Shown: in pieces, positions 1 through 34,531 of the stretch
Layout of the letters: every line of letters starts with the position of its first letter
Numbering within the stretch: the stretch's first letter is position 1
Source: a virus
Length of the DNA stretch: 34,531 nt
Virus record (IMG/VR): IMGVR_UViG_3300027932_000003
Span: 1-34,531 of that record
Reading direction: 5' to 3' (one strand)
Translations under genes and position numbers: made by a program
The notes under the pieces: generated by a model
The model's database searches: none
What the model saw: the letters and a program-made list of their open reading frames with translations, nothing else
What the model was told of the DNA's origin: nothing

Positions 1-50
1 TGTAGTTTTTTTCATTTTCTGCGAAAATTTCACAACTAATGCAAAAAATT

Positions 51-410
51 GAAAATTCCAATTTCTTTCGTTTTTTTCGTTTTTTTCGCAAATTTCCCAA
101 CTTTCGCAATAAATTGGAAATTCCAATTAATTCTACACCTCCAAATAATAATTGGAGCGGTGCAAAAAATTCAAACTTCCAAAATTCCAATTAATCTGTC
201 ATTTTGCGTAAATTGTGCAAAAAATGAGAAAAATTGTAAATTCCTAATTTCCTAAATTTGAAATAATCTATCATTTTCTGCAAAAAAGTTAAAAAATTGG
301 AAATTCCTAAATTCCAAATAATTCTACATTTCCAAATAATTTTTCAACTATGATAAAAAATACTAATTTTCTAAATTCCTAAATTACAATTAATCTGTCA
401 TTTAGTGAAA
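51..410. repeat. Imperfect short tandem direct repeats inside the ITR (unit approx aaattcc(a/t)aatt, plus recurring aattaatctgtcatt)
   Basis: At least 8 copies of the aaattcc-aatt motif seen by eye between about 51 and 395; aattaatctgtcattt occurs at about 190 and 388; mirrored in the right ITR. Confidence 0.5.
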
Positions 411-1289
411 TTTGTAATATAAAATTTGCAAATTCAAACTTTGGAAATTTGTAATAAATGTTAATTTGTGGATATTAATAACTACTAACTATAATATTAT
501 AATTTATAATTTGGAGGGAACCAAACCCACAATTTAAAGTTTTTAGTTACTAAACATATTCATAATTTATTTAATTTCTTAATTCTAGCAAACCAAAACC
601 TCAATTTAAAGTTAGAAAGATACTAAACATATTGTTAATTTGTTATATTTATTCAAATCGTTATGTGTTGTTAGTTTTTTGCGTTTAGTGTTGGAGAAAT
701 TGGAAGTTTAGAAAGAAAAGTTTATATACCAGAAGAAAGCATTTAGTATTGTTAGTGGGCATTATCTTTCTTCTTATTATTATTTTTTTATATATATTAT
801 TATTAACATTTAAATTAGATAATTATATAATTATGAAGTTATATAATTATATAATTAGCTAACTACTAATTAGTAGTTTATAATATAATAATTATAGTTT
901 TGTAGTTCAAGTGTAAAATATAGTTTCTTTTTTTCTTTCAATTCAATAGAAGATTCTGTATACAGTTTGGATTTATATCAGTATTTTATGGTAAAAATTG
1001 TAAGGAGATTTAATAATTTAGAGAATATGGAAACTATCTAGTTATTCAATATAATAATTATATAGTTATGTAGTTAGTAGTTTATAATTAATAAATTATA
1101 GTCAAACCTAAAATAGGTTTTTTTAGGATTTTTCACCGTTAGGAAACAATTTATGTTTGGTGTTATGAGAGAAATTGGAGAGACAGAATTTACACGTTCT
1201 CTATAGAGAGAGGTGGCGATAAGAGTTAAGGAGATAGAGAATGTTTTATATTCGTCATATAATATATGATGATTTGTAGATGATAAAAA

Positions 1290-1478
1290 ATGACAAGAGT
1301 ACATAAATTAACTGCTGAGCAGAAAAAAATTTTAGAAAGAATGCATAATAGAATAGATTATATTATCAAAGCTTACAAGGAGTATTTGAATGCGTTAGCT
1401 GAATTTGATAGAACTGGTGTATTAAAAATTCATGGGAAAGTCATTTATGAAAGAAAATATAATGATCATCAAAAATAA
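1290..1478 (+). CDS. ITR-encoded hypothetical protein (62 aa), left copy
   Basis: ATG-initiated ORF with balanced helical-looking composition; upstream ttttatattcGTCATAt (1241..1260) about 40 nt before the ATG matches the genome-wide promoter pattern; identical copy in right ITR. Confidence 0.5.
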   Translation: MTRVHKLTAEQKKILERMHNRIDYIIKAYKEYLNALAEFDRTGVLKIHGKVIYERKYNDHQK

Positions 1479-1516
1479 CATAATTATAAGTCGAAAAATG
1501 AAGACATGAAAAGGTA

Positions 1517-1536
1517 GAGAAAGATTTAAATATGAG
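1517..1536 (+). promoter_or_regulatory. BRE/TATA promoter (gagaaagaTTTAAATAtgag) inside the ITR, driving 1567..1764
   Basis: Purine-rich stretch plus TTTAAATA box about 40 nt upstream of ATG 1567; same module recurs at about 1937..1954, 3241..3260 and 3968..3986. The mirrored copy (32996..33015) sits about 39 nt upstream of ATG 32966 on the minus strand. Confidence 0.5.
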
Positions 1537-1566
1537 TTTTTACATATATGATATTGTGAATAAAAG

Positions 1567-1764
1567 ATGATGAGCATAAAAACAAAAATAAGTAAAAAAC
1601 AAGCGAAAGAATTAGTTTCGCAGTTTTTGCAAAATTCAAATTATATTTCGTATAAAAGTTCAACTAACTTTTATTATTCATTTACTGATAAAAAAGCTTC
1701 AGTCGATATAAAGATTTATGAATTTGATAAGAAATATTTTTTAGAAATTATCACATTAAGTTAG
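1567..1764 (+). CDS. hypothetical protein (65 aa)
   Basis: ATG ORF preceded by the ITR-embedded TATA module; T-rich tail downstream. Confidence 0.45.
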   Translation: MMSIKTKISKKQAKELVSQFLQNSNYISYKSSTNFYYSFTDKKASVDIKIYEFDKKYFLEIITLS

Positions 1765-1840
1765 TTTTTTAATTTTTTATTTCTATTTCTTATTTTTCTC
1801 ATAATTTGTTATTTTTTATTTTCTGCAATTATGTTAAATT

Positions 1841-1860
1841 TTTTTCAAGTTTGAGATAAT
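1841..1860 (+). repeat. T-tract + palindromic element, copy 1 (tttttCAAGtTTGAGAtaat)
   Basis: Recurring motif 3' of plus-strand genes; see also 2403..2425, 3893..3912, 13608..13629, 17214..17237. Confidence 0.4.
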
Positions 1861-1987
1861 ATTACTAAATATAGAGAAATTGTGTGTTGTATAGTCTAAT
1901 GATAAAAATAACGTAAGATATAAAGGTAAAAGTATAAAGAAAACTTTAAATATGAGAATGAAGATATGTATATTGGTGAAAAGAAAA

Positions 1988-2302
1988 ATGAACACACAAA
2001 AAGATACACAAAAAGAAGTTGAGCAAAAGATAGGCGAAATTTTATATAGGGCAAGACAAGAAGGAGAAGCTTTTTTAGTTACTTTAACATCTGAGCAATT
2101 AAAGAAGTCTGGTTTTGAAGAGGATAATGATTTCTTTAATTTTAGCAATGTAGACATTTATATAATTTATGACGGCGAATACAAAATTAAATATATATTT
2201 GACAATGATCCTAGCAATTTTATGTATGAAAGTAAAATAGAAATTGGTGGGTTAAAGGAGTTCATAGAAGTTATTAAAAAATATCTAGAAGTTTCAGAGT
2301 AA
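1988..2302 (+). CDS. hypothetical protein (about 104 aa)
   Basis: ORF track starts at ATG 1952, which lies inside the TATA box (ctttaaatATGag). The first ATG at the expected 36-43 nt spacing is 1988, so I place the start there; same frame and stop. Confidence 0.5.
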   Translation: MNTQKDTQKEVEQKIGEILYRARQEGEAFLVTLTSEQLKKSGFEEDNDFFNFSNVDIYIIYDGEYKIKYIFDNDPSNFMYESKIEIGGLKEFIEVIKKYLEVSE

Positions 2303-2402
2303 TTTTTTTCTTTTTTTGTTTCAATTTTCCCAGTTACCGTTTTTTTCTCCAAATTTCTATTTCTCCATGACTATTTTCTAAAATTTTCAAGACTATGTAT
2401 AA

Positions 2403-2425
2403 TTTTTCTCAAGATTGAGATAAAA
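2403..2425 (+). repeat. T-tract + palindromic element, copy 2 (tttttcTCAAGATTGAGAtaaaa)
   Basis: TCTCAA-GA-TTGAGA is a perfect inverted repeat with 2-nt spacer, preceded by a T-tract. Confidence 0.4.
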
Positions 2426-2492
2426 ATTCATGACTAACATTTATTGAGAGAAACATAAATATGTCATAAATATAAAAGAAAATCGATATATT

Positions 2493-3017
2493 ATGAATAT
2501 AGTTTTGAGAGAATTGAATAAAGAAAAATTTAATATAAATATCACTGCATGGTTAGATATTGATAATGATATTCAAAGTTGTTATACAAATTTTAAAGAA
2601 ATTACGATAGTTACAATAATTCAAATGATTTCTGAAATTGTAGAAAAAGATGGCTGGGATTTACAATATTTTGAGAAAGATGAAGAAGAAAAATTATTTA
2701 ATGCATTTATGAAAAACTCTAAAATTACAGTACGGCTAAATAAAAAGATAGATGAATTGAATTATGATTTTAAAGAAACTATTGTTGAATTTGATTTTTC
2801 AGAAAGTGAGAAAAAGAAAATTGCAGAAATATATTTGAGTAATATACTTAATGAATATCGTTATTTAAATGACTGTATTTTGGAAAATTTAGCAGACAAA
2901 GATATTAATTCGATTTCAGAAGCTTTAAGTAGTGAAGTTTATCAATTATTAAGTTCTGATGAGATAAAAGCAAAATTTAAGGAAAAGATAGAGAAAATTA
3001 ATACTGAAAAAGTATAG
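2493..3017 (+). CDS. hypothetical acidic protein (174 aa)
   Basis: ATG ORF; promoter cataaatatGTCATAaatataaaag at about 2451..2478. Confidence 0.55.
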   Translation: MNIVLRELNKEKFNINITAWLDIDNDIQSCYTNFKEITIVTIIQMISEIVEKDGWDLQYFEKDEEEKLFNAFMKNSKITVRLNKKIDELNYDFKETIVEFDFSESEKKKIAEIYLSNILNEYRYLNDCILENLADKDINSISEALSSEVYQLLSSDEIKAKFKEKIEKINTEKV

Positions 3018-3032
3018 ATAAGATGTGAAAAT

Positions 3033-3194
3033 ATGGATTTAAATGCTCCATTAGATCCAATATGGCTTTTGGTTATTGTTGGAATTTTTTATGAATTATT
3101 ATTTATCTTTTTCTTATTGGAATTAAGACAGATAATGAAACGAATTGAAGAAGAAGAATTAGTCAGAATGTTAAAAAAGAAATATAAAAATTAA
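3033..3194 (+). CDS. small hypothetical membrane protein (53 aa)
   Basis: Hand-translated: MDLNAPLDPIWLLVIVGIFYELLFIFFLLELRQIMKRIEEEELVRMLKKKYKN; one hydrophobic helix followed by a charged tail; starts 16 nt after the stop of 2493..3017; below the ORF-track size cutoff. Confidence 0.3.
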   Translation: MDLNAPLDPIWLLVIVGIFYELLFIFFLLELRQIMKRIEEEELVRMLKKKYKN

Positions 3195-3293
3195 ATAAAT
3201 TTTCACTAAAAATATGGCGTAAGCTACAAAGATAAAAGTTTAGAGAAAACTTTAAATATAAGTTTAGACATATGTTATATTGAGGTAAGAAGA

Positions 3294-3461
3294 ATGAAAG
3301 AAGTAAAAGTTGGAAATTCGAGATATTATATAAGTTCAAGAGATGATGAGATAAGTGTAATACATGAGTTAGTTCAAAAAGGTTACTCCATAAGTCAAAT
3401 AGCTAGTTTGTTGAATATTTCAGAAAGAAAAATTAAAAAATACTTAGAAGATTGTTGGTAA
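3294..3461 (+). CDS. small helix-turn-helix DNA-binding protein (55 aa)
   Basis: Hand-translated: MKEVKVGNSRYYISSRDDEISVIHELVQKGYSISQIASLLNISERKIKKYLEDCW; GYSISQIASLLNISERKIKKYL is a typical HTH; TATA module at 3241..3260 and gaggt 8 nt upstream of the ATG; missed by the ORF track. Confidence 0.45.
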   Translation: MKEVKVGNSRYYISSRDDEISVIHELVQKGYSISQIASLLNISERKIKKYLEDCW

Positions 3462-3642
3462 GTTATTTCTTTTTTTGATTTTTAATTTTTTCTTTTCTTT
3501 TTATTTTTATGTTTTATTATTTTTAGTTTTAAAATATCAATACAAAATTTTCGATAAATTTTGGAATTGAAAGATATGAATGTAAAAGTTTGAAGAAAAT
3601 TTTATAAAGGGCAAATGACATAATGTAAAATTGGAGGTAAAT

Positions 3643-3843
3643 ATGAATTGTGTAACAATTGAACAAAAAGGCAAATATACGTACATAAAATGTAAAAAAT
3701 GTGGAAATGTGCTAATTACAAATGATCCAGAATTATCGTTAGCTCCAATAAAAAATAAACAATTAATATCAATATCTAGCTGTGAGCATTTTCAAGTTAT
3801 TGAAAATGAAGATACAGTCGAAATTATATCAAAACAAAGTTAA
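3643..3843 (+). CDS. hypothetical protein with Cys-rich putative metal-binding motifs (66 aa)
   Basis: ORF track starts at TTG 3631; ATG 3643 is preceded by ggaggt (Shine-Dalgarno-like) and lies about 40 nt from the TATA at about 3597; contains CKKCG and SSCEH. Confidence 0.45.
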   Translation: MNCVTIEQKGKYTYIKCKKCGNVLITNDPELSLAPIKNKQLISISSCEHFQVIENEDTVEIISKQS

Positions 3844-3892
3844 TTTTTTTCTTTTTTAGTTTTAACTTTCTATTTTCTATTTTTATGTTCCA

Positions 3893-3912
3893 TTTTTCTC
3901 AAGTTTGATATA
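3893..3912 (+). repeat. T-tract + palindromic element, copy 3 (tttttcTCAAGTTTGATAta)
   Basis: Same motif family, one mismatch in the right arm of the palindrome. Confidence 0.35.
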
Positions 3913-4014
3913 TTATTTCTAAACTGGAGGAATTAAAAAAGCGTAGGATAGAAACGTAAAACTGTAGAGAAAACTTTATATATAAGTTTTTGCATATTAG
4001 ATATTAGTGATAAC

Positions 4015-4251
4015 ATGAGTCAAAAAGTTAGGTTAGGCAGAAAAGAAAAAGCAGTTTTAGATTTTTTAAAAGAACATGCAGAAGGCGTTTGGAAGACCGA
4101 TTTAATTAATCATTTTAGCTGGGCTAGTCGTTATGATAATGTTATGAACAAAAGGTTACAACAAATGCAGAAAAAAGGTCTAATAATCATAAAAAGTGAG
4201 ATAAATCCGGAAAGCGGAAGAAGTAAGCAAAGAGTTTATTTAAAACAATAA
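4015..4251 (+). CDS. winged-helix DNA-binding protein (78 aa), paralog of 13704..13928
   Basis: Hand alignment with the 74-aa product of 13704..13928 shows shared R-GxxE, W, NKR, KKGL, NPxxGR and VYL positions; TATA module at 3968..3986. Confidence 0.6.
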   Translation: MSQKVRLGRKEKAVLDFLKEHAEGVWKTDLINHFSWASRYDNVMNKRLQQMQKKGLIIIKSEINPESGRSKQRVYLKQ

Positions 4252-5418: not shown

Positions 5419-6726
5419 TTAACCACCTAAATTACTAAATCTCATTAAGTTTATTATTCTATTACAAATTTCTTCATTTTGTACTTTTCCAATTTGTAAA
5501 TCTATGTCTAATGCCTGTAATAGAATTTGAATATCGATACTTTGCTCTTGTCTTCTGGATTCTAAATTTTCGCAATTTACATAGTTATGAATACTATTTA
5601 TCTTCTGTTGAATTAATTCAATTAATGCTTTTAAAATTGAAGGATAAAGAACTCTTGCATTTATAATTTTATCGTAAGTTTTCTTAATTGCTAATTGAAT
5701 AATATGAATTCTATCTAATATTGCAGAAGTGAAAATTTCATAATTTTGTAGATAGTCTTCTAAATCTGGAGTTACTAATTTATTAATTGTATATGCATAT
5801 GGATTTCCAGCGTAAATAATTGGAATACATTTTTGTATAGTTGCTGATTTTGATTCTGTTCCAGCTCCTCTTGTCCAAATACAATTTTCAATTCCAGTTG
5901 ATAGAGTTGAATTTATAGTATTTAGTTCTTTTGTTGAAAAACCATCTTTCCAATTTTGAATTTCATCAAATATCAAACCGTTTGATAGAAATACAGCTCC
6001 ATACATATTGTTTCGAGCATCATATACCAAATTGGCATAAGTTGGAGCTTCCGTGTAATATCTAAAATTGAAAACTTCTTGTAAAATCATGAAAGTTGTA
6101 GTTTTTCCAGTTCCTCTATTAGAAATTTCAATATAATTTATTTGTCTTTTGGTAATTGGAGATTTGAAAAGTGGGAATAGTCTTGGAAGAAAGAGAAATA
6201 TATCATTTATTTCCATTTTAGTCGGGTCATATCCAAAACTTTGCAATAAAAGTGCATAAGTTGAATATTCTGAATTTGCTAATTCAAATAATTCTTTTGC
6301 AATTTCATAATTGTTGGGTGGCTCAATTGAATAAATATCATAAATACGCCAACCTTCTATACCTTTTCTAATTTTGACAAACATGTAACTTGTAATTAAA
6401 TTATAGAAATTTTCAGGATTATCAGCTATAAAATGTGGATCGAAATTTGCAGTAAAACCATTTTGAAATTTTGCTATAACTTCATCATCTTTTACTTTAA
6501 ACTGTATAATTTTAGAGATAAATTTCACTTCATCATTAAAAAGCAAATAAGATTGAAAATATTGTTGATCAATTCCGCGTTTGTAAGCTTTTAAAATTTC
6601 AATTTTCTTCCTTTCTTCAATTTGTTTTCCAGAGAGAATTATATTTAAAACTCTTTCTGTATCTCTTGGATTATAAAAAAAAGAATGAGATTTTATTTTT
6701 TCAAGAAGTTGATTTGAACTACTCAT
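5419..6726 (-). CDS. P-loop ATPase, putative helicase (435 aa)
   Basis: Walker A NRGTGKTT; size and position between the SSB-like and nuclease genes. Confidence 0.7.
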
Positions 6727-13703: not shown

Positions 13704-13928
13704 ATGAGGATAGGTAAAGAAGAAGAAAAAATTTTAGAATATCTTCAAAAAAATGGAGATTCAGAGTGGTTAGATAAATTGAAAAGTACTTTTTCTCATA
13801 CTGTTGGATATAAAATAATTGTAAATAAAAGAATAAAGAATCTAGAGAAAAAAGGTCTAGTAAAAATTGTTTGGGAAAAGAATCCACAGACTGGAAGAAA
13901 TAAAAAGAAAGTGTATTTAGTAACTTAA
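13704..13928 (+). CDS. winged-helix DNA-binding protein (74 aa), paralog of 4015..4251
   Basis: See 4015..4251; conserved NKR, KKGL, NPxTGR and VYL positions. Confidence 0.6.
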   Translation: MRIGKEEEKILEYLQKNGDSEWLDKLKSTFSHTVGYKIIVNKRIKNLEKKGLVKIVWEKNPQTGRNKKKVYLVT

Positions 13929-25883: not shown

Positions 25884-26014
25884 ACTATTTTTATCCCATC
25901 ATGACCTAAAAAACTATTCACAACTAATTCATAATATTATGAATATAGCATGTCCTCATTGATCTCATCAGAAACCAAGATAACTAATATTTGTCATAAC
26001 TTGAGAAGAATATT

Positions 26015-26620
26015 ATGAAAATCTTCACATTTGCAGGGTTTACAAAACATCTAAAGGAATTGGATTTTGATTATGTTGTCTTGGATAAAACTTTTAATGA
26101 TATAACTCCCCAGTTAATCGAAAAATTTAGAGATAAGATAATCTGGAATGAAACAAATAGTGATATAAGAGCCATAAGGATAGCTAAACAATTACTAAAA
26201 ATTCTAGAAATAGCAAAAGATCAAGATGATGACATATTTGCTATAGTAGATAGTGATCTAATTGTTCCAAATTTGAGAAATATTGACCCTAACGATAAAA
26301 TTTTAACTTTGTGCTATTGGCTTTATTACGACTGGGCTAATGAAATTAGACCATTTTGTTCAGGAACAAATTACATTTTTAATAAAAAACATATTGTAAT
26401 TTTAGAAACTGCAATAAATGTTTATTTAGAAAAAGAATATTATAAAGAATTTTCAGTGGATATATTTCTACATGACCATATTTTGCATATAAACGTCTTG
26501 AAGTTAGGAACTATCCATTATGTAAAAACTCCAGAGGGAGAGAAAAAAATGGAATTTACATTTGAAAATATAAATCAAGTGTTTAAACATATTCCAGAAT
26601 TTGTTTTAATATCTTGGTGA
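26015..26620 (+). CDS. hypothetical protein with DxD-like motif (201 aa)
   Basis: ATG ORF; promoter tatttGTCATAacttgag; IVDSDLIV could be a DxD nucleotide-sugar motif (weak). Confidence 0.5.
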   Translation: MKIFTFAGFTKHLKELDFDYVVLDKTFNDITPQLIEKFRDKIIWNETNSDIRAIRIAKQLLKILEIAKDQDDDIFAIVDSDLIVPNLRNIDPNDKILTLCYWLYYDWANEIRPFCSGTNYIFNKKHIVILETAINVYLEKEYYKEFSVDIFLHDHILHINVLKLGTIHYVKTPEGEKKMEFTFENINQVFKHIPEFVLISW

Positions 26621-26729
26621 GGTCAAATATGGAGTTCTTTAATTCAGAATTGAGACCGAACCAGTCCAAACTTAAAGTTAAAGACATTAAAATGTCATTT
26701 TTTAAATTTTGAATTAAGGACGTGGTAAA

Positions 26730-27812
26730 ATGAGTGGTGATATTTTATTGCAAACTCCAATTTATTACGTTTATCCACAACATCATGATGTTTCTTTTAA
26801 GTTTGTAGCAAAAGAACATATAAAAATGCTAAAAGAAAAATATACAGTTTACGAAATTCCTGCTTTATCATTTTATCAATTTACTCCTTTCAAATATCCA
26901 ATTTCAATTATTCATCCATTCTTTTATTCAATGTGGCATTGGGGTAACGTTGAATTTTCATTCTTTGAACAATATAGATCTAAAGTTAGTCAAATAATAG
27001 GAGTTGAAGTAGCTGACAGTGATAGAATTTCAGAAAAATTTATAGATTATGCAAATAATTATGCAGATAGACTAATTGGAAATTCTGAATGGACATTAAA
27101 CGCTTTTAAAAATTCTGGACTAAAAATTCCAATTTTTAAAGTTGTTCATAATTTTAATGAGAGATTATTGGCGAAAAATGATGAATTAAAAGTTGATGAA
27201 CAAGTTAAATATATTGAAAAAGTAAAGAAAGAGAAAAATATAAAACTAGTAATGATATCGCTTTGGCATTCTGATTACAGAAAAGGAGCTGATTTATTTC
27301 ACGTAATTGTAAAAGAAATACAAAAAGAAAGAGATGATATTTATTTTCTAGTCAAATCAGGCGGGCCGAGGACAGATTTTCAAGACCTCAAAATGTTTAA
27401 CCTAACAGGAAATACAGATTTTGATAATATCGTAAAAATGTATAGAATTTCTGACTTGTATTTACTAACTTCAAGAGGCGGAAGTTTTGAATTAAACGGT
27501 TTAGAAGCTTTTGTATCAAAAATTCCAGTTGTAGCAACTAAAGGAGGAGCATGGCAAGAGTATTTTCCTTCACAATTGAAAGATTTATTAATTGATAGTT
27601 GTGATTATCCAACAGTTTTACCAGGAAATCCAATTCATATAGGAAAAGGAGTGGAAATGTGCATAAATGACGCTATAGATAAAATATTAGAAGTTTTAGA
27701 TAAATTAGATGAATATAAGGCAAAAATTGAGGAGAACTATAATTTTTGGCTAGAAAATTTTAGTTATGAAACTGTAAAAAAACAATTGTTTAACACATTA
27801 GAAAAATCTTAA
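26730..27812 (+). CDS. putative GT-B glycosyltransferase (360 aa)
   Basis: TSRGGSFELNGLEAFVSKIPVVAT resembles the C-terminal sugar-donor region of GT4 enzymes; aaggacgtggt upstream of the ATG. Confidence 0.55.
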   Translation: MSGDILLQTPIYYVYPQHHDVSFKFVAKEHIKMLKEKYTVYEIPALSFYQFTPFKYPISIIHPFFYSMWHWGNVEFSFFEQYRSKVSQIIGVEVADSDRISEKFIDYANNYADRLIGNSEWTLNAFKNSGLKIPIFKVVHNFNERLLAKNDELKVDEQVKYIEKVKKEKNIKLVMISLWHSDYRKGADLFHVIVKEIQKERDDIYFLVKSGGPRTDFQDLKMFNLTGNTDFDNIVKMYRISDLYLLTSRGGSFELNGLEAFVSKIPVVATKGGAWQEYFPSQLKDLLIDSCDYPTVLPGNPIHIGKGVEMCINDAIDKILEVLDKLDEYKAKIEENYNFWLENFSYETVKKQLFNTLEKS

Positions 27813-27838
27813 ATTGGTCATAAAACTCAAACTGTAAC

Positions 27839-29035
27839 ATGGAATTTAAAAGAAAAAGTTCAGGCATAATAAAAAGTTTTAGCTCATTAGACATTTTTTC
27901 TATAAACCTACTTTACATGGGAATTTTAAGCGGTATAAGTTATCCTCTTTTTGTCTCAAGTCTTCTAAAATCTGTAAATTTACTATTTGCAATTTTGATA
28001 GGTGCAATTTTTGGAATTCCGTTACTTGCAATGTATTATTTACTGACTAAAAAAATTCCGCTTAATGGAGGAGATTATGCGTACATTAGATCTTCATTTT
28101 CTCCAAAATTCTATACAGTTTTTGGAATTTCGCTCTGGTTAATTTATGTATTTTCAGCACCAGTTTTATCAAACCTTGTATTGTTAAATTTCAATATTCC
28201 AATATTCGATAAGTTTTTAATTTCAGAACTATTACTTGGGACTGCGTTACTTAGTGTTAGCAAAAAAACAATTTATGCTTATATTGTTGACGCTATCGCA
28301 ATTTTACAAATAATCGTTTCGCTAATCTTGCCAATTTCAAGTTTCCATTTTCAAATTCAAAATTTTACAATATCCAATACTCTATTATCGGCATTATTAT
28401 TTGATTTATCTATGTTTTTATTTCTAAATGCAATTAGTTACATAGCAGGAGAAACAAAAAACATAAACAAAAATGCGAAAATCGGATATTTTGTAAGTTA
28501 TTTAGTAGTTACAATTTTAGCAGTATTGGACAGTTATTCAAATCTAAATATATTATTTCTACTAATGCCGATATGGTTTATGAGTTATATTTTTGTTACT
28601 TCTATGATTCAGAGTAGACTAGTTCAAAATTTAGCATTTGATAAAATCTTACCTGAAAAATTTGCAAAAATAACGCCTAATGCTTTACTGTTAATCTTTA
28701 TCGCTGATACAATTACAAACGTTTTAGAAAATCTTCTAAATTTTACAATTTCATTTGGTCTTGATGGCCTGTTATTTATTTTCTGGAACTTTATAATTGT
28801 TAGTTTTGCATTTCTGAAATTGACAAATAAAAAACTATTATTTTCAATAGTAATGATTAGTCTAATTTTACAGATCTTCTTATTCTTTTATTTAGGATTA
28901 CAAAATAGCGTATTTTATAATTTTGTAATTGAGGGAAACATACTATATACAATATTAAGAATATTGATAATGCCAATTGTTGGAGGAATTATTTACTTAT
29001 TGAGGAGAAAAGTGATAAATGTTGAATTAAAATGA
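27839..29035 (+). CDS. polytopic membrane protein, possible flippase/transporter (398 aa)
   Basis: At least 10 hydrophobic segments by eye; sits between a glycosyltransferase gene and 29032..29934, overlapping the latter by 4 nt. Confidence 0.6.
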   Translation: MEFKRKSSGIIKSFSSLDIFSINLLYMGILSGISYPLFVSSLLKSVNLLFAILIGAIFGIPLLAMYYLLTKKIPLNGGDYAYIRSSFSPKFYTVFGISLWLIYVFSAPVLSNLVLLNFNIPIFDKFLISELLLGTALLSVSKKTIYAYIVDAIAILQIIVSLILPISSFHFQIQNFTISNTLLSALLFDLSMFLFLNAISYIAGETKNINKNAKIGYFVSYLVVTILAVLDSYSNLNILFLLMPIWFMSYIFVTSMIQSRLVQNLAFDKILPEKFAKITPNALLLIFIADTITNVLENLLNFTISFGLDGLLFIFWNFIIVSFAFLKLTNKKLLFSIVMISLILQIFLFFYLGLQNSVFYNFVIEGNILYTILRILIMPIVGGIIYLLRRKVINVELK

Positions 29036-29934
29036 AATTGATTTTTGGATTAAGTTCAACATTATCATATATTTTAAAAACAAATTTTCCAATTTTAGTT
29101 AATCAACTAAGATTTAAAAGAAAAACATGGAAAAATGAAACATGGATTGATAGTGGCGGATATCAAATTATAATGCATAATCTAAAAATTTCTGTAAATG
29201 ATGTCTTGCAAAAGTATAAAAGTGTTAATGCTTACGCATTTTTTTCGCTTGATATTCCTAGCGTTTTTTCGCCAATTGATAAACGAAACTTTGAATATTT
29301 CGAATATCTATATACGAAAATTGAGTATATAGAAAAGATTATACCAGTTTTACATATTTATTCACTTCAAGATATAGATGAAGCAATTGATTTTTATAAA
29401 CAATACAGTTATTATTTTGCAATTGGTGGTATAATGACTTCTAGCAAAATGAAAGTTTTACAATATACATTTCCATGGGTTTATTATATAAAAAGAAAAG
29501 TTCCATATCTCCATATTTTAGGCATGTCATCTCCATATTTTTTACAAATTTTTAATAATATGCAAAGCATGGATACCGCAATTTGTTCAACAATTTCAAC
29601 ATTTAAAGAAATAATTTGGTTTGATAGTTCTAGGAGATATGTTGGAAATATGAAAACAAAAAGGGAAAGATATAAAATTACAAAAGAAGAAAAAGAACAA
29701 TTATTTGAATTTTTAGACAAACATAACTTTCAATTTAACTATGATTTAAGTAATAGAAATATTCTAGAACTTATAAATGCATATATGTTATTATATAATA
29801 ATTGGAAAATTAAGAATAAATATACAGAATATGCAGAAAAACTTAGAAAAATGGGACTAGATAGTTTGACAAGTGAGTTAATTAGAAATTATAAAATTGC
29901 AAATGAAATATTAAAACAGAAAAGAGAAAAATAG
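29032..29934 (+). CDS. hypothetical protein (300 aa)
   Basis: ATG ORF translationally coupled to the membrane protein gene. Confidence 0.55.
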   Translation: MKLIFGLSSTLSYILKTNFPILVNQLRFKRKTWKNETWIDSGGYQIIMHNLKISVNDVLQKYKSVNAYAFFSLDIPSVFSPIDKRNFEYFEYLYTKIEYIEKIIPVLHIYSLQDIDEAIDFYKQYSYYFAIGGIMTSSKMKVLQYTFPWVYYIKRKVPYLHILGMSSPYFLQIFNNMQSMDTAICSTISTFKEIIWFDSSRRYVGNMKTKRERYKITKEEKEQLFEFLDKHNFQFNYDLSNRNILELINAYMLLYNNWKIKNKYTEYAEKLRKMGLDSLTSELIRNYKIANEILKQKREK

Positions 29935-29948
29935 AAGATAAAAAAATA

Positions 29949-30503
29949 TTAACTTAACAATTTGTCTAATTCTTCATCATAAATTACTTCAACTTTTCCG
30001 TCTTTGACAATTATTTTGCCACTAAGATTTTCGCCGAAATAATGTAGTAACATTCCAAATCCTGTTGTTCTAGTTCTTCCGCTAATTTTGTATTCAATTT
30101 CTGCATTATTGTTACACCAAAGATGTTTCACATAGCCTAATGAGCCTGCAGGAGACATTAGTACGCTAGTTTGCTGACACTCACCAGAATTAATTTTTAC
30201 ACTTACATCTCCTCTAAATCCACTAGGAATTTCGATTAAGTATAATGTCGAATTTGGCTCATATTTTATCACTAAAGTTCCTTTTTCAGTTTGAATCATT
30301 TTGGCATTTGATAATTTTAATGCAATTGAACTAACTGACTCAAATTCTATAAAACTTCCATTCCCATCACTTTTAACAAACCTTCCGCTGATATAAATAA
30401 TTCTGCCTCTTTTTCTGGAACCAATACCAGTAAGATCTAATTGTTTATCTTCAAAATATGGATATTTTCCATCTTTTAAACTAACTGGAACTTTGTAACT
30501 CAC
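29949..30503 (-). CDS. hypothetical protein (184 aa), GTG start
   Basis: No in-frame ATG before residue 69; GTG at 30503 is preceded by gaggtaat; 10 nt after the upstream gene. Confidence 0.5.
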   Translation of the reverse strand: MSYKVPVSLKDGKYPYFEDKQLDLTGIGSRKRGRIIYISGRFVKSDGNGSFIEFESVSSIALKLSNAKMIQTEKGTLVIKYEPNSTLYLIEIPSGFRGDVSVKINSGECQQTSVLMSPAGSLGYVKHLWCNNNAEIEYKISGRTRTTGFGMLLHYFGENLSGKIIVKDGKVEVIYDEELDKLLS

Positions 30504-30513
30504 TTTTATTACC

Positions 30514-31236
30514 TCAATCTGTTTTATTTTTCCTTGGTCTTGGATGTGTAATTAAATAATATTTATTTCCGCTTAACATAACCGAATTTTCACCATGATC
30601 TGGAGATTTAATAACAAATACAGTAGCGTCTTGTGGATGTACTAAAAACGTAGAACCAGGTGTTGAAAATAAATCAGTAGCTAATACAGTATTTGAAAAT
30701 TGTATTTCATGATTATAAATTGTTAAACTACTTACATGATTGAGACTAAGATTTAATTCACCATTTGGCGGTGGAACTTCATAAATTTCTAGATTTCCTT
30801 GATTATATGTCAAATGAAATTCGTATAATTGACCTTTTATGAAATAATCATAAACTTCTATTGAATAATTGCTATAAGAAATTAATAATTCTTTTGAACT
30901 AAGATTTAAAAGTTCTAGTTCTTTTAATATAATGTTTTTCATATCTTCTAAACTTCTTGTAATTTTATTTCTTCTATAGACAGATATTATTGGCGATACT
31001 GGCGTATAATATATTCCTTTTACTTCATCCAATTGATCATCAATATTTCTAAAACATCCATTAAATGTCATACCGCTTCTTGAAACATATTTAGAACAAT
31101 TAATAAAATGATTAGATATTAACGAAATTTTGGTAACTTGACCATTTGTATGTTTCAACATAAAAACGATTGGCAAATATTTAATTTGTTTTAAAATTTT
31201 AACTTCATATTTTTTAACTTGATCTTCTTGAGACAT
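30514..31236 (-). CDS. hypothetical protein (about 240 aa)
   Basis: ORF track start 31248 is GTG; ATG 31236 is preceded by aggtga and by tttaaatttGTCATAtagc. Confidence 0.55.
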   Translation of the reverse strand: MSQEDQVKKYEVKILKQIKYLPIVFMLKHTNGQVTKISLISNHFINCSKYVSRSGMTFNGCFRNIDDQLDEVKGIYYTPVSPIISVYRRNKITRSLEDMKNIILKELELLNLSSKELLISYSNYSIEVYDYFIKGQLYEFHLTYNQGNLEIYEVPPPNGELNLSLNHVSSLTIYNHEIQFSNTVLATDLFSTPGSTFLVHPQDATVFVIKSPDHGENSVMLSGNKYYLITHPRPRKNKTD

Positions 31237-31322
31237 ACGATCTATCACCTGTAAAATATCATATGCTATATGACAAATTTAAAGCATTCGAAAAGTCTCG
31301 ATTTAGAAAAATATAAAAAAAA

Positions 31323-31607
31323 TTATTTTTCATAATATTCTATTGTAATTCTATCAATTGGAAAATCATATCCTGTTATCATCTCTAAAGTTTTCCTAGG
31401 CTCTCTGACTAGTAAGCAAAATAATTCATCAAAATTTTTAACTCCAAAATCTTCATAAATACTACTACTGAAATCTCTAACTTCTCTGTTAATTTCAGTC
31501 TCGATTAAACAATATTTTTGTTCATAATCTGTAATAAAATAACTTTCTTCTTCTGATAAAATAATTCTAAAACCATAGTTATATTTTTCAACTATTATAT
31601 CAACCAT
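31323..31607 (-). CDS. hypothetical protein (94 aa)
   Basis: ATG ORF with aggtgaagg upstream; second gene of a two-gene unit. Confidence 0.5.
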   Translation of the reverse strand: MVDIIVEKYNYGFRIILSEEESYFITDYEQKYCLIETEINREVRDFSSSIYEDFGVKNFDELFCLLVREPRKTLEMITGYDFPIDRITIEYYEK

Positions 31608-31623
31608 TTTTCCTTCACCTCAT

Positions 31624-31920
31624 TTAACAATTAATTGTCCAGTCTCTATTTCCATATTTTTCCTCAAACTCTTGGTATTTTCTTTGTTTTAATAATTTTA
31701 TAATTTTTTTAACTTCTTCTTCTGTAATTTTTAAACAATTCCTTCCATTATAATGGCTAATTGTAATTGTCGGAGTAACTTTGTCACGGTTTACTGTTTC
31801 AACTTGAACATAATATTCGCCATTTTTTTCAACAATATAATAATAATAATCTTCAAACTTAGTTTTTACTTTTTTAGAATAAATTATCTTCCTATCTTCT
31901 TGATTTGAACTTTCGGACAT
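31624..31920 (-). CDS. hypothetical protein (98 aa)
   Basis: ATG ORF; promoter tttttatatttGTCATAaaag then aggtga. Confidence 0.5.
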   Translation of the reverse strand: MSESSNQEDRKIIYSKKVKTKFEDYYYYIVEKNGEYYVQVETVNRDKVTPTITISHYNGRNCLKITEEEVKKIIKLLKQRKYQEFEEKYGNRDWTINC

Positions 31921-32009
31921 TTAACTCATCACCTGTAAATTAACATAACTTTTATGACAAATATAAAAATATCTTAAGCTTTCGATTTATAAAAAAGAAA
32001 AAAATAATA

Positions 32010-32474
32010 TTAATCTTTGATAAATTCGATTCTATAATTTTTCTTCAAAAGATAATATACTTTAAAATAGAAAGGATCAGCGTGACTGACAATAGATTCT
32101 GGTACCATCTTCAGTAAAGCAATGATATCTTCTGGAACATTATATTCATTAGAATAGTAAATGATTACTTTATTTTCTTTGCCTTCAAATCTATGCCAGA
32201 AATACGCTCTTTTGTAATATATGATATAATTATGAAACCCATTATTCCACTCATCATATGCTATATACTTTATATTATCATCATTAACAAAAATTACAGA
32301 ACTAATATATCGATCATTTACAACATTTCTTAATTTTTCAAATAGATATTCCTTAAGCTCCTTATAATTTGCTTTTTGTATTTCATTCCATAACTGAATA
32401 ATTTCATATCTCAAAATCTCTAATTGATTAATTATTTGATTTATTTTTTCTAATTGTTGATCAAATCTATTCAT
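32010..32474 (-). CDS. hypothetical protein (about 154 aa)
   Basis: ORF track start 32480 is GTG; ATG 32474 follows ttttaaatttGTCATAatac. Confidence 0.5.
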   Translation of the reverse strand: MNRFDQQLEKINQIINQLEILRYEIIQLWNEIQKANYKELKEYLFEKLRNVVNDRYISSVIFVNDDNIKYIAYDEWNNGFHNYIIYYKRAYFWHRFEGKENKVIIYYSNEYNVPEDIIALLKMVPESIVSHADPFYFKVYYLLKKNYRIEFIKD

Positions 32475-32651
32475 TTTCACTTCTCACCAAATCAATTCAC
32501 GTATTATGACAAATTTAAAAATGTCTTTACTTTTCGATTTGCAAACTTTCTAAAATATTAGTAATTTTATTTAAAGCCTGAGAAAAATTAAGCATGGAGA
32601 AAGAAAACAAAAAACAAAAAAATAAAAAATAAAGAATACGAAAGAAAAAAA

Positions 32652-32966
32652 TTAGTATATATTCCAAATCAATAAAGCAATTAACTTCAATATTTCTTCA
32701 CGCGTACCTTCAATTACTTTTTCATTATCAAAACTCTGACTGACCTTATACAATTGTGCAATCTTCTGCAAAATTTTAATAACGTCTAAATCTTGTGGAT
32801 TTAAGTACTGATAATAAACTTCATTTTCACCATGTTTTATCTTTATAACTAATTTGTTATACTCTATATGCTTACCTTGCACTTGTTCTAACTGAATTAA
32901 AAAATTAACATTAACTTGTTGTTCCAATACCTCTTTCATTTGACTTTGACTTTTTTCTTGACTCAT
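32652..32966 (-). CDS. hypothetical protein (about 104 aa), diverged paralog of 1567..1764
   Basis: Driven by the right-ITR copy of the promoter; ATG 32966 is 39 nt from the mirrored TATA (ATG 32978 is also possible); product shares KE(L/V), VYYQY / FYYSF and DxxIKI segments with the left-end 65-aa protein. Confidence 0.45.
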   Translation of the reverse strand: MSQEKSQSQMKEVLEQQVNVNFLIQLEQVQGKHIEYNKLVIKIKHGENEVYYQYLNPQDLDVIKILQKIAQLYKVSQSFDNEKVIEGTREEILKLIALLIWNIY

Positions 32967-32992
32967 CTTTTTCACCATTATCTATTATCTCT

Positions 32993-34531
32993 AAACTCAT
33001 ATTTAAATCTTTCTCTACCTTTTCATGTCTTCATTTTTCGACTTATAATTATGTTATTTTTGATGATCATTATATTTTCTTTCATAAATGACTTTCCCAT
33101 GAATTTTTAATACACCAGTTCTATCAAATTCAGCTAACGCATTCAAATACTCCTTGTAAGCTTTGATAATATAATCTATTCTATTATGCATTCTTTCTAA
33201 AATTTTTTTCTGCTCAGCAGTTAATTTATGTACTCTTGTCATTTTTTATCATCTACAAATCATCATATATTATATGACGAATATAAAACATTCTCTATCT
33301 CCTTAACTCTTATCGCCACCTCTCTCTATAGAGAACGTGTAAATTCTGTCTCTCCAATTTCTCTCATAACACCAAACATAAATTGTTTCCTAACGGTGAA
33401 AAATCCTAAAAAAACCTATTTTAGGTTTGACTATAATTTATTAATTATAAACTACTAACTACATAACTATATAATTATTATATTGAATAACTAGATAGTT
33501 TCCATATTCTCTAAATTATTAAATCTCCTTACAATTTTTACCATAAAATACTGATATAAATCCAAACTGTATACAGAATCTTCTATTGAATTGAAAGAAA
33601 AAAAGAAACTATATTTTACACTTGAACTACAAAACTATAATTATTATATTATAAACTACTAATTAGTAGTTAGCTAATTATATAATTATATAACTTCATA
33701 ATTATATAATTATCTAATTTAAATGTTAATAATAATATATATAAAAAAATAATAATAAGAAGAAAGATAATGCCCACTAACAATACTAAATGCTTTCTTC
33801 TGGTATATAAACTTTTCTTTCTAAACTTCCAATTTCTCCAACACTAAACGCAAAAAACTAACAACACATAACGATTTGAATAAATATAACAAATTAACAA
33901 TATGTTTAGTATCTTTCTAACTTTAAATTGAGGTTTTGGTTTGCTAGAATTAAGAAATTAAATAAATTATGAATATGTTTAGTAACTAAAAACTTTAAAT
34001 TGTGGGTTTGGTTCCCTCCAAATTATAAATTATAATATTATAGTTAGTAGTTATTAATATCCACAAATTAACATTTATTACAAATTTCCAAAGTTTGAAT
34101 TTGCAAATTTTATATTACAAATTTCACTAAATGACAGATTAATTGTAATTTAGGAATTTAGAAAATTAGTATTTTTTATCATAGTTGAAAAATTATTTGG
34201 AAATGTAGAATTATTTGGAATTTAGGAATTTCCAATTTTTTAACTTTTTTGCAGAAAATGATAGATTATTTCAAATTTAGGAAATTAGGAATTTACAATT
34301 TTTCTCATTTTTTGCACAATTTACGCAAAATGACAGATTAATTGGAATTTTGGAAGTTTGAATTTTTTGCACCGCTCCAATTATTATTTGGAGGTGTAGA
34401 ATTAATTGGAATTTCCAATTTATTGCGAAAGTTGGGAAATTTGCGAAAAAAACGAAAAAAACGAAAGAAATTGGAATTTTCAATTTTTTGCATTAGTTGT
34501 GAAATTTTCGCAGAAAATGAAAAAAACTACA
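32993..34531. repeat. Right inverted terminal repeat (ITR)
   Basis: Mirror copy of 1..1539; the window ends with the reverse complement of its first bases. Confidence 0.85.
33054..33242 (-). CDS. ITR-encoded hypothetical protein (62 aa), right copy
   Basis: Identical translation to 1290..1478; mirrored promoter. Confidence 0.5.
   Translation of the reverse strand: MTRVHKLTAEQKKILERMHNRIDYIIKAYKEYLNALAEFDRTGVLKIHGKVIYERKYNDHQK

Follow-up and report, generated by a model that had tools for sequence, protein, structure and literature searches.

Why would a perfect terminal repeat stop in the middle of a promoter and leave a different gene behind each of its two copies? This question is raised by the ends of a viral DNA of 34,531 nt (IMG/VR record IMGVR_UViG_3300027932_000003), which was analyzed at its full length and is called the window from here on. 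Its inverted terminal repeat (ITR) comprises 1539 nt, with 1..1539 perfectly complementary to 34531..32993. The first mismatch is seen at 1540, which bears out a first-pass annotation in which the ITR ended 27 nt before the ATG at 1567; at the right end, the distance from the edge to the ATG at 32966 is 26 nt. The same annotation read this arrangement as the remnant of an ancestrally longer ITR, whose inner part would have diverged into two paralogous genes. The comparisons described below point to the opposite direction of change. With a probability of about three in four, the edge of the repeat falls within a known early-gene cassette, the two genes behind it are unrelated, and the ITR was extended by the copying of a right-end segment to the left end, within that cassette.

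The window is a usarudivirus genome, complete or near-complete. Its first 6 kb are best matched by Yellowstone Sulfolobus islandicus rod-shaped viruses (SIRVs; genus Usarudivirus), the closest being SIRV8 and SIRV10, with around 89% identity across around 81% of the query and no identical record. The gene order is that of SIRV8, SIRV9, and SIRV10, and the G+C content is 25%. One IMG/VR contig, L012, is 100% identical to positions 34531..25894, that is, to the right 8.6 kb.

The terminal cassettes and the genes behind them

The promoter at the left edge consists of a purine-rich TFB recognition element (BRE; AGAGAAAGA, 1516-1524) followed by a TATA box (TTTAAATA, 1525-1532). Both lie inside the ITR, their mirrored copy (33016-33000) lies upstream of the minus-strand gene 32652..32966, and the two terminal open reading frames (ORFs) start beyond the edge, all as the first-pass annotation had stated. 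Past the edge, the two ends differ. The left-specific half of the cassette holds a palindrome (CATATATG, 1543-1550) and a Shine-Dalgarno-like GTGA (1556-1559), and the right-specific half holds two copies of GATAAT and a Shine-Dalgarno-like GGTGA (32976-32972). An in-frame ATG at 32978 falls inside this GGTGA ribosome-binding site and is consequently an unlikely start. The same right leader also precedes the ortholog SIRV10 gp46, where it is outside the SIRV10 ITR. Transcription is predicted to start near 1553-1557 at the left end, and the right start would be near 32975-32979. Speculatively, two ends that share the BRE and the TATA box and differ in the initiator/operator half may have the same promoter strength and be regulated differently.

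Small single genes at rudiviral termini have been described as preceded by a conserved regulatory sequence, in which a strong BRE is combined with a TTTAWATA promoter, and this sequence has been used to predict anti-defence genes (ADGs) (Bhoobalan-Chitty et al. 2024, Nat Commun, PMC11065993). In SIRV2, transcription of the genes behind this sequence begins immediately after infection, and Aca8 (SIRV2 gp01) probably represses them; rudiviruses that carry Aca8 include SIRV4-11 and V3/V60/V65 (PMC11065993). The window virus is not among the genomes analyzed in that work. Nevertheless, its termini show the same BRE, TTTAWATA box, conserved flanks, and small single genes at both ends. Across ten rudivirus genomes, 71 cassettes were found (56 distinct), every one of them before an ORF of at least 40 aa. 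Their consensus, AGAGAAAacTTTAaATAt.AGttTttacATAt..tatAtTggtga, has a length of around 50 nt and places the TATA box 38-45 nt from the ATG; it runs from a purine-rich BRE through the TATA box TTTAWATA, a conserved initiator/operator region, and a GGTGA-type ribosome-binding site to the ATG. Six cassettes are present in the window, all at most 4.1 kb from an end and before ORFs of 55-104 aa, and they share one consensus through the ribosome-binding site. By this comparison, 1516-1566 and 33016-32967 are recognized as two copies of the rudiviral early-gene regulatory cassette. The small terminal genes are self-contained units made of a cassette, an ORF, and a T-rich terminator. A scanner for bacterial sigma-70 promoters and terminators is inapplicable to archaea and hence was not used.

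The genes behind the two cassettes belong to published families. The 65-aa left protein is 52-58% identical to SIRV8 gp01, SIRV9 gp58, and SIRV4 gp02 (E-values of 7e-15 to 2e-14 in the full phage collection, and of 1e-18 to 2e-19 for the ADG.10 relatives in nine local genomes) and corresponds to phrog_22437 (E=2.6e-25). These three proteins are listed under ADG.10 (PMC11065993 supplement). The 104-aa right protein is 75% identical to SIRV10 gp46 (E=7e-43), with tblastn matches of 44-46% identity in fuselloviruses, and falls in a different PHROG (4746, as opposed to 22437). SIRV10 gp46 is listed under ADG.01, together with SIRV8 gp58, SIRV4 gp01, and fusellovirus homologs, and SIRV10 gp47 is listed as ADG.17/vAT (PMC11065993 supplement). 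ADG.17 is a Phd-like viral antitoxin that was shown to inhibit a host Phd-Doc system, whereas ADG.10 and ADG.01 are predicted ADGs, assigned by promoter association (PMC11065993). By similarity, then, the 65-aa protein of the window is assigned to ADG.10, the 104-aa protein to ADG.01, and the 62-aa protein encoded within the ITR to ADG.17, so that three families listed in that work are present in the window, as is an Aca8 homolog. Searches of Pfam, PADLOC, and PDB sequences with the 65-aa, 104-aa, and 62-aa proteins gave nothing above threshold.

Are the two terminal proteins related to each other? They had been considered diverged paralogs on the basis of short shared motifs (FYYSF/VYYQY and VDIKI/LDVIKI). 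Alignment of both proteins and of the DNA of both ends gives no significant protein similarity: BLASTP returns E=1.3, with 5/22 identities, and alignment of the family profiles with hhalign gives a probability of 0.25% with profiles built from relatives and of 0.21% with a 36-member alignment of the 104-aa family. The motifs are not conserved within the families and are attributable to chance; for instance, the YY of VYYQY is not kept in the 104-aa family, where relatives read EISFTY or EINFSY. The predicted folds also differ. The AlphaFold2 model of the 65-aa protein is β-α-β-β-β-β (predicted local distance difference test, pLDDT, 94.1), and in that of the 104-aa protein a disordered N-terminus leads into β-β-β-α-α (pLDDT 87.6). 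The latter model matches SSV1 A100 (PDB 4LID; E=7e-5 and 9e-4, template modeling score 0.66-0.86), and the three-stranded sheet followed by two helices of the A100 fold is found in it. A Foldseek search of the 65-aa model against the PDB gave nothing significant (the best hit, RnlA-domain-like with E=0.2, is given no interpretation), and no strong PDB match is common to both models. In addition, ADG.10 and ADG.01 are both present in six of the nine usarudivirus genomes compared (the window, SIRV4, SIRV8, SIRV9, V3, and V65), and in SIRV4 they are tandem neighbors at the same end. Judged by sequence and by the models, the two products are unrelated, and ADG.10 and ADG.01 are best described as two unrelated predicted anti-defence proteins.

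It had also been noted that the two ends stay about 70% similar for some 30 nt past the repeat. Similarity is indeed present, but it is not specific to the two ends. Past the edge, the 27-nt left and 26-nt right leaders share 74% identity when gaps are allowed and 52% when they are not; among the leaders of the 49 other genes in the window, which lack a cassette, the mean is 56% +/- 9% and 1.7% of the pairs reach 74%. The terminal leaders are, however, also 61-71% identical to those of internal cassettes outside the ITR (1945 and 3251). Moreover, each terminal leader has a closer counterpart than the other one: for the left leader it is that of the ITR gene at 1290 (81% identity), and for the right leader that of an unrelated gene at 13704 (78%). 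After the ATGs, the ungapped identity of the two ends is 36-38% over 100-200 nt past the edge, with around 31% expected from a composition of 25% GC. The residual similarity is explained by the conserved region of the cassette, which extends just past the ITR edge of the window; what lies past the edge is the conserved 3′ half of a cassette, and not decayed repeat.

The inner 301 nt of the terminal repeat

The outer and inner parts of the ITR have different counterparts in the relatives. The core, 1..1238, matches the terminal repeats of SIRV4, SIRV8, SIRV9, SIRV10, SIRV11, V3, V60, and V65, and the alignments to the terminal repeats of all relatives cover 1-1212/1244. By contrast, 1244-1532, with ADG.17 and the first half of the next cassette, matches single-copy DNA outside the ITR in SIRV8 (2460-2748), SIRV9 (1413-1701), SIRV10 (31364-31039), V3, and V65. 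ADG.17 is present twice only in the window, and is single-copy in its carriers SIRV8, SIRV9, SIRV10, V3, and V65. At the right end, the adjacency of ADG.17 and ADG.01 is common to SIRV10, in one continuous alignment of 785 nt. At the left end of SIRV8 and V3, the ITR core is followed directly by ADG.10. Upstream of ADG.17, the window resembles the ITR core up to GGAGATAGA, and then continues with the promoter and leader of the gene itself, as in SIRV8, SIRV9, and SIRV10.

Metagenome contigs provide a population view of the same site and the strongest evidence for growth of the ITR. Three of them (L015, L016, and L017), which stem from three samples, carry ADG.10 with an identical protein product and lack the left-end ADG.17 unit, as in them the counterpart of the window up to 1238 (97.9-100% identity) is joined straight to that of 1506 onward (99.7%). 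Their junction reads GGAGATAGA-AAGATAAAAAGAT-AGAGAAAGATTTAAATATAAG-TTTTTACATATATG, which is the arrangement of SIRV8. A fourth contig, L014, also lacks the left-end extension. The empty-site contigs L015-L017 are not deletion derivatives of the window type, because the junction string GATAGAAAGATAAAAAGATAGAG is missing from the window and yet present in both these contigs and SIRV8. Furthermore, the left cassette of the window reads TATGAG, like the right-end copy of the ITR, while the empty-site contigs read TATAAG. The inner crossover would therefore lie between that position and 1540, within AGTTT (1535-1539). The expanded left junction is itself found in another contig, L013 (Ga0074075_12207), with 98.65% identity over 1.78 kb; besides the ADG.17 unit, this contig carries around 290 nt of extra sequence after window position 2329. 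Given the empty-site variants and this insert, terminal gene content is polymorphic within the population. The phasing of the extension at both ends rests on the window assembly, since L012 and L013 cover one end each. Taken together, these comparisons mark the segment 1239-1539 as the derived state, and it is most likely that the ITR expanded recently rather than decayed.

Repeat edges in related rudiviruses

An ITR edge within a cassette is not peculiar to the window. In every genome with a readable edge, ten in all (among them the window, SIRV4, SIRV8, SIRV9, SIRV10, SIRV11, V60, V3, and SIRV2), the inner edge lies inside a cassette. The exact position varies: it is within the TATA box in SIRV9, SIRV10, and V3, just after the TATA box in the window, SIRV8, and V60, and at the ribosome-binding site or ATG in SIRV4 and SIRV11. 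In SIRV2 (genus Icerudivirus), which has a complete record, a perfect repeat reaches 1602 and ends at the ribosome-binding site of a cassette. There are around seven distinct junction types, and, even with edges confined to intergenic DNA, of which around one third is cassette, the chance that all of them fall in cassettes would be around 0.3^7 = 2e-4, which is a rough estimate and not a formal test. Other breakpoints between genomes also lie at cassettes. For instance, ADG.17 is followed by four different genes in different viruses, and the leader GAGATAATAGATAAT precedes ADG.10 in V3 and ADG.01 in the window and SIRV10.

The ITR appears to have captured genes on three occasions: ADG.17 in the window virus, ADG.10 in SIRV8, and Aca8 in SIRV2. 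In SIRV8, left positions 1311-1542 equal right positions 36493-36262 and overlap the 3′ end of gp01 (ADG.10), and the record breaks off at its right end inside the second copy; by this alignment, ADG.10 has apparently been captured by the SIRV8 ITR. In SIRV2, gp01/gp54 (Aca8, ORF83a/b) lies in the ITR and is said to be the one protein that SIRV2 encodes in two copies (PMC5537682). SIRV2 and the window are thus alike in that a small early gene with its own promoter is inside the ITR, and hence duplicated, and in that the ITR ends in the cassette of the next gene, with unrelated genes beyond. They differ in the gene, which is Aca8 in SIRV2 and ADG.17 in the window, where the Aca8 homolog is single-copy and internal, and in the edge, which in the window is between the TATA box and the predicted transcription start and in SIRV2 is at the ribosome-binding site.

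SIRV2 ORF119a/b were considered as a positive control for diverged paralogs at the two ends and were rejected, as no similarity remains once they are trimmed to their likely true ATGs. The annotated forms show a weak match (E=0.004), which is gone without a 10-residue N-terminal extension that is largely inside the ITR. The annotated starts of ORF119a (1584..1943) and ORF119b (33508..33867) are in the cassette leader, and the likely ATGs are at 1614 and 33837. Pairs named ORFxxxa/b at rudiviral ends, such as this one, should not be presumed paralogs.

Spontaneous deletions in SIRV2M (Δ1491-5474 and Δ32426-33939; PMC6315595) offer a further comparison. Their endpoints fall in a direct repeat of around 55 nt of intergenic regulatory DNA, one copy of which is inside the ITR. 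As in the window, the rearrangement endpoints are in repeated intergenic regulatory DNA. Unlike in the window, these are deletions between direct repeats located around 40-90 nt upstream of the TATA box, and not an inverted duplication joined inside the core cassette.

Extending this to the Rudiviridae as a whole, the balance tips slightly in favor of the inner ITR boundary being set by recombination in early-gene cassettes. The ITR would then be a movable platform that repeatedly captures, duplicates, and swaps anti-defence units between the ends, and the cassette would have two roles, driving transcription and providing recombination sites at which the turnover of these units is accelerated. 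The promoter and the three gene families have already been published as predicted early or anti-defence units, and the element is ordinary for a rudivirus. In the papers searched, two aspects are apparently undescribed: the consistent location of ITR edges inside cassettes across two genera, and the capture, at the population level, of an ITR expansion of around 300 nt that duplicates a viral antitoxin gene. A term search of PMC11065993 found no mention of inverted terminal repeats or recombination, and therefore the cassette was not related there to the ITR boundary or to ITR growth; a similar search of the SIRV4-11 genome paper found no mention of ITRs or promoters. If general, the process would explain in concrete terms how anti-defence genes at the ends of linear archaeal viruses can be gained and lost, and can change in dosage, so rapidly, and it would parallel the ITR dynamics of poxviruses.

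Mechanism, competing explanations, and further features of the termini

How might such an edge work, and how might it have formed? Judging by the literature, TBP and TFB would bind the BRE and TATA box carried by the ITR, and transcription would start around 25 nt downstream, in unique DNA. This would yield monocistronic early mRNAs with short leaders, for ADG.10 at the left end and ADG.01 at the right, and the Aca8 homolog (3294..3461) would probably repress the terminal genes later. As for its formation, cassettes are the main homology blocks in otherwise variable terminal DNA, where exchange between the ends would start and stop; the ITR would stop mid-cassette for this reason. A right-end segment with a promoter, ADG.17, and the BRE/TATA half of the next cassette would have been copied onto the left end, with one crossover in the ITR core and the other within the AGTTT of the cassette upstream of ADG.10. 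As an outcome, the ITR would have grown from around 1238 to 1539 nt and ADG.17 would have been duplicated. The anatomy suggests inter-terminal recombination, or copy-choice during hairpin-primed strand-displacement replication, as the route.

A comparable process operates in poxviruses, whose genomes, like those of rudiviruses, are linear hairpin-ended double-stranded DNA with variable host-interaction genes at the ends. In them, terminal transposition or recombination places a copy of unique DNA from one end at the other, so that the ITR lengthens and genes are duplicated. The virus realm and the replication machinery differ, however, and the crossover homology in the window is a promoter cassette of around 50 nt that is common to many genes.

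Several points weigh against the preferred explanation. Promoter activity, transcription starts, and Aca8 control in the window virus are all extrapolated from the SIRV2 literature. The records of most relatives are partial genomes with truncated ends, so that the repeats in which their ITR edges were located are incomplete. The empty-site contigs, which are short, lack phasing with a right end. In addition, an edge located just upstream of two similar cassettes would read as being inside them, which applies to the TATA-box junctions of SIRV9, SIRV10, and V3. Finally, the molecular route could be gene conversion, break-induced copying, or template switching.

Selection could also set the edge, if each ITR had to bear a strong outward-to-inward early promoter, whichever gene followed it. 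This would fit with the presence of a cassette at the ITR edge in every rudivirus examined, with the location of rudiviral anti-defence genes at both ends, and with the expression of the known SIRV2 ones immediately after infection. Nevertheless, the edge moves within the cassette from the TATA box to the ribosome-binding site, as crossovers predict, and breakpoints between genomes elsewhere in the terminal regions are also at cassettes. Selection is an unlikely determinant of the edge on these grounds, although it is compatible with recombination and the two explanations are not exclusive.

There is also a small chance that the left extension, with ADG.17 beside ADG.10, is an artefact of assembly, produced by a mis-join via the 24-nt identical cassette half or by copying of the ITR during finishing. 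The joint is in repeated sequence, where assemblers tend to err, the left junction string of the window was not found in IMG/VR, and several contigs join ADG.10 straight to the ITR core. By contrast, L013, an independent Joint Genome Institute metagenome contig that is 1.35% different, keeps the same order of ITR core, ADG.17, cassette, ADG.10, and cassette over 1.78 kb, and the same kind of edge is found in nine other genomes, including the complete SIRV2 with its perfect 1602-nt repeat.

The last alternative, a longer ancestral ITR with one gene per end whose inner part diverged into paralogs with around 30 nt of residual similarity, is scarcely credible and the first-pass annotation is refuted on this point, with the direction of change being the opposite: the gapped identity of the leaders, the near-equal distance of both ATGs from the edge, and a SIRV8 repeat that appears to include ADG.10 (so that ITRs covering ADG.10 exist) would suit it, but the proteins share no similarity at the sequence or profile level and have different predicted folds, nucleotide identity is at background right after the ATG with no gradual decay, internal cassettes show the same leader similarity, ADG.10 and ADG.01 coexist in most of the genomes compared, and the inner 301 nt of the ITR are derived and not ancestral. 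The extension of the ITR by copying within a cassette thus remains the preferred explanation, and the features on which it is based are collected in Table 1.

Table 1. Coordinates of the ITR, the promoter cassettes, and the associated genes in the window
Feature	Position	Strand	Basis
Left ITR, perfect copy of 34531..32993	1..1539		End-to-end comparison
Right ITR	32993..34531		End-to-end comparison; contig L012 match
ITR core, ITR in relatives too (mirror 33294..34531)	1..1238		Matches to terminal repeats of relatives and to empty-site contigs
ITR extension: promoter, ADG.17 gene, and BRE/TATA half of next cassette (mirror 33293..32993)	1239..1539	+	Single-copy in relatives; missing at left end in L014-L017
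ADG.17, Phd-like viral antitoxin gene (62 aa), left copy	1290..1478	+	98% identical to SIRV10 gp47
ADG.17 gene, right copy	33054..33242	-	Mirror of left copy
BRE (AGAGAAAGA) and TATA box (TTTAAATA) of left terminal cassette, inside ITR	1516..1532	+	Fits published early-gene regulatory consensus
Mirrored BRE and TATA box of right terminal cassette, inside ITR	33000..33016	-	Sequence; cassette pattern search
Left-specific cassette half	1540..1566	+	Sequence and cassette consensus
Right-specific cassette half	32967..32992	-	Sequence; same leader before SIRV10 gp46
ADG.10-family gene, 65 aa, predicted β-α-β4 fold	1567..1764	+	Sequence similarity; PMC11065993 supplement; model pLDDT 94.1
ADG.01-family gene, 104 aa, SSV1 A100-like fold	32652..32966	-	Sequence similarity; PMC11065993 supplement; model pLDDT 87.6
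TATA box of internal cassette before gene 1988..2302 (104 aa, phrog_15508)	1945..1952	+	Strict pattern
TATA box of cassette before Aca8 homolog 3294..3461	3251..3258	+	Strict pattern
TATA box (TTTATAAA) of cassette upstream of 66-aa ORF ending at 3843	3601..3608	+	Pattern TTTAWAWA
TATA box (TTTATATA) of cassette upstream of gene 4015..4251	3975..3982	+	Pattern TTTAWAWA

The Aca8 homolog, of the SIRV1 gp1-like winged helix-turn-helix type, is a 55-aa ORF on the plus strand with its own cassette, and it matches PDB 2X48 (E=1.3e-15). Its relatives are labelled as terminase small subunit in RefSeq, which looks like a misannotation. Two antisense ORFs, 1422..1577 and 1526..1663, which run opposite to the ADG.17 and ADG.10 genes and the cassette and overlap them, were set aside as chance ORFs of AT-rich DNA. 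An Rfam scan of window positions 1..4000 found no RNA family.

Other regulatory sequences are also present near the termini. A second class of promoter, in which TTTTAAATTT or TTTTTATATTT is directly followed by GTCATA, is located upstream of 31248, 31920, and 32480 on the minus strand and at 1245..1262 on the plus strand. Several genes at the right end lie behind it, and ADG.17 natively has a promoter of this type. This class resembles a motif, GTC after the TATA box, that is reportedly found in SIRV1 and SIRV2 promoters. In addition, a conserved intergenic element (TTTTTTCAAGTTTGTGATA..TTGAAAATATAGAGA) is found upstream of cassettes, at around 1440-1530 and 5425-5515 in SIRV2 and at 1845-1885 and 2395-2425 in the window; it is in copies of this element that the spontaneous SIRV2M deletions end.

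The outer part of the ITR (1..700 and its mirror) is made of short dispersed and tandem repeats, which are typical of rudiviral termini. These include TTTCGTTTTTT at 62-100, AAATTCC(T/A)AA at 280-400, and a repeat of around 42 nt with copies at 500-541 and 572-613. Contig L012 carries 8 nt more (TAGGTATT, its positions 1-8) past the terminal base 34531 and, judging from this extension, the window may lack the extreme terminus or a hairpin. Finally, a 244-aa ORF at the right end (30514..31248, minus strand) is 40% identical to SIRV2 gp48, the anti-CRISPR AcrIIIB1 (E=2.7e-50).

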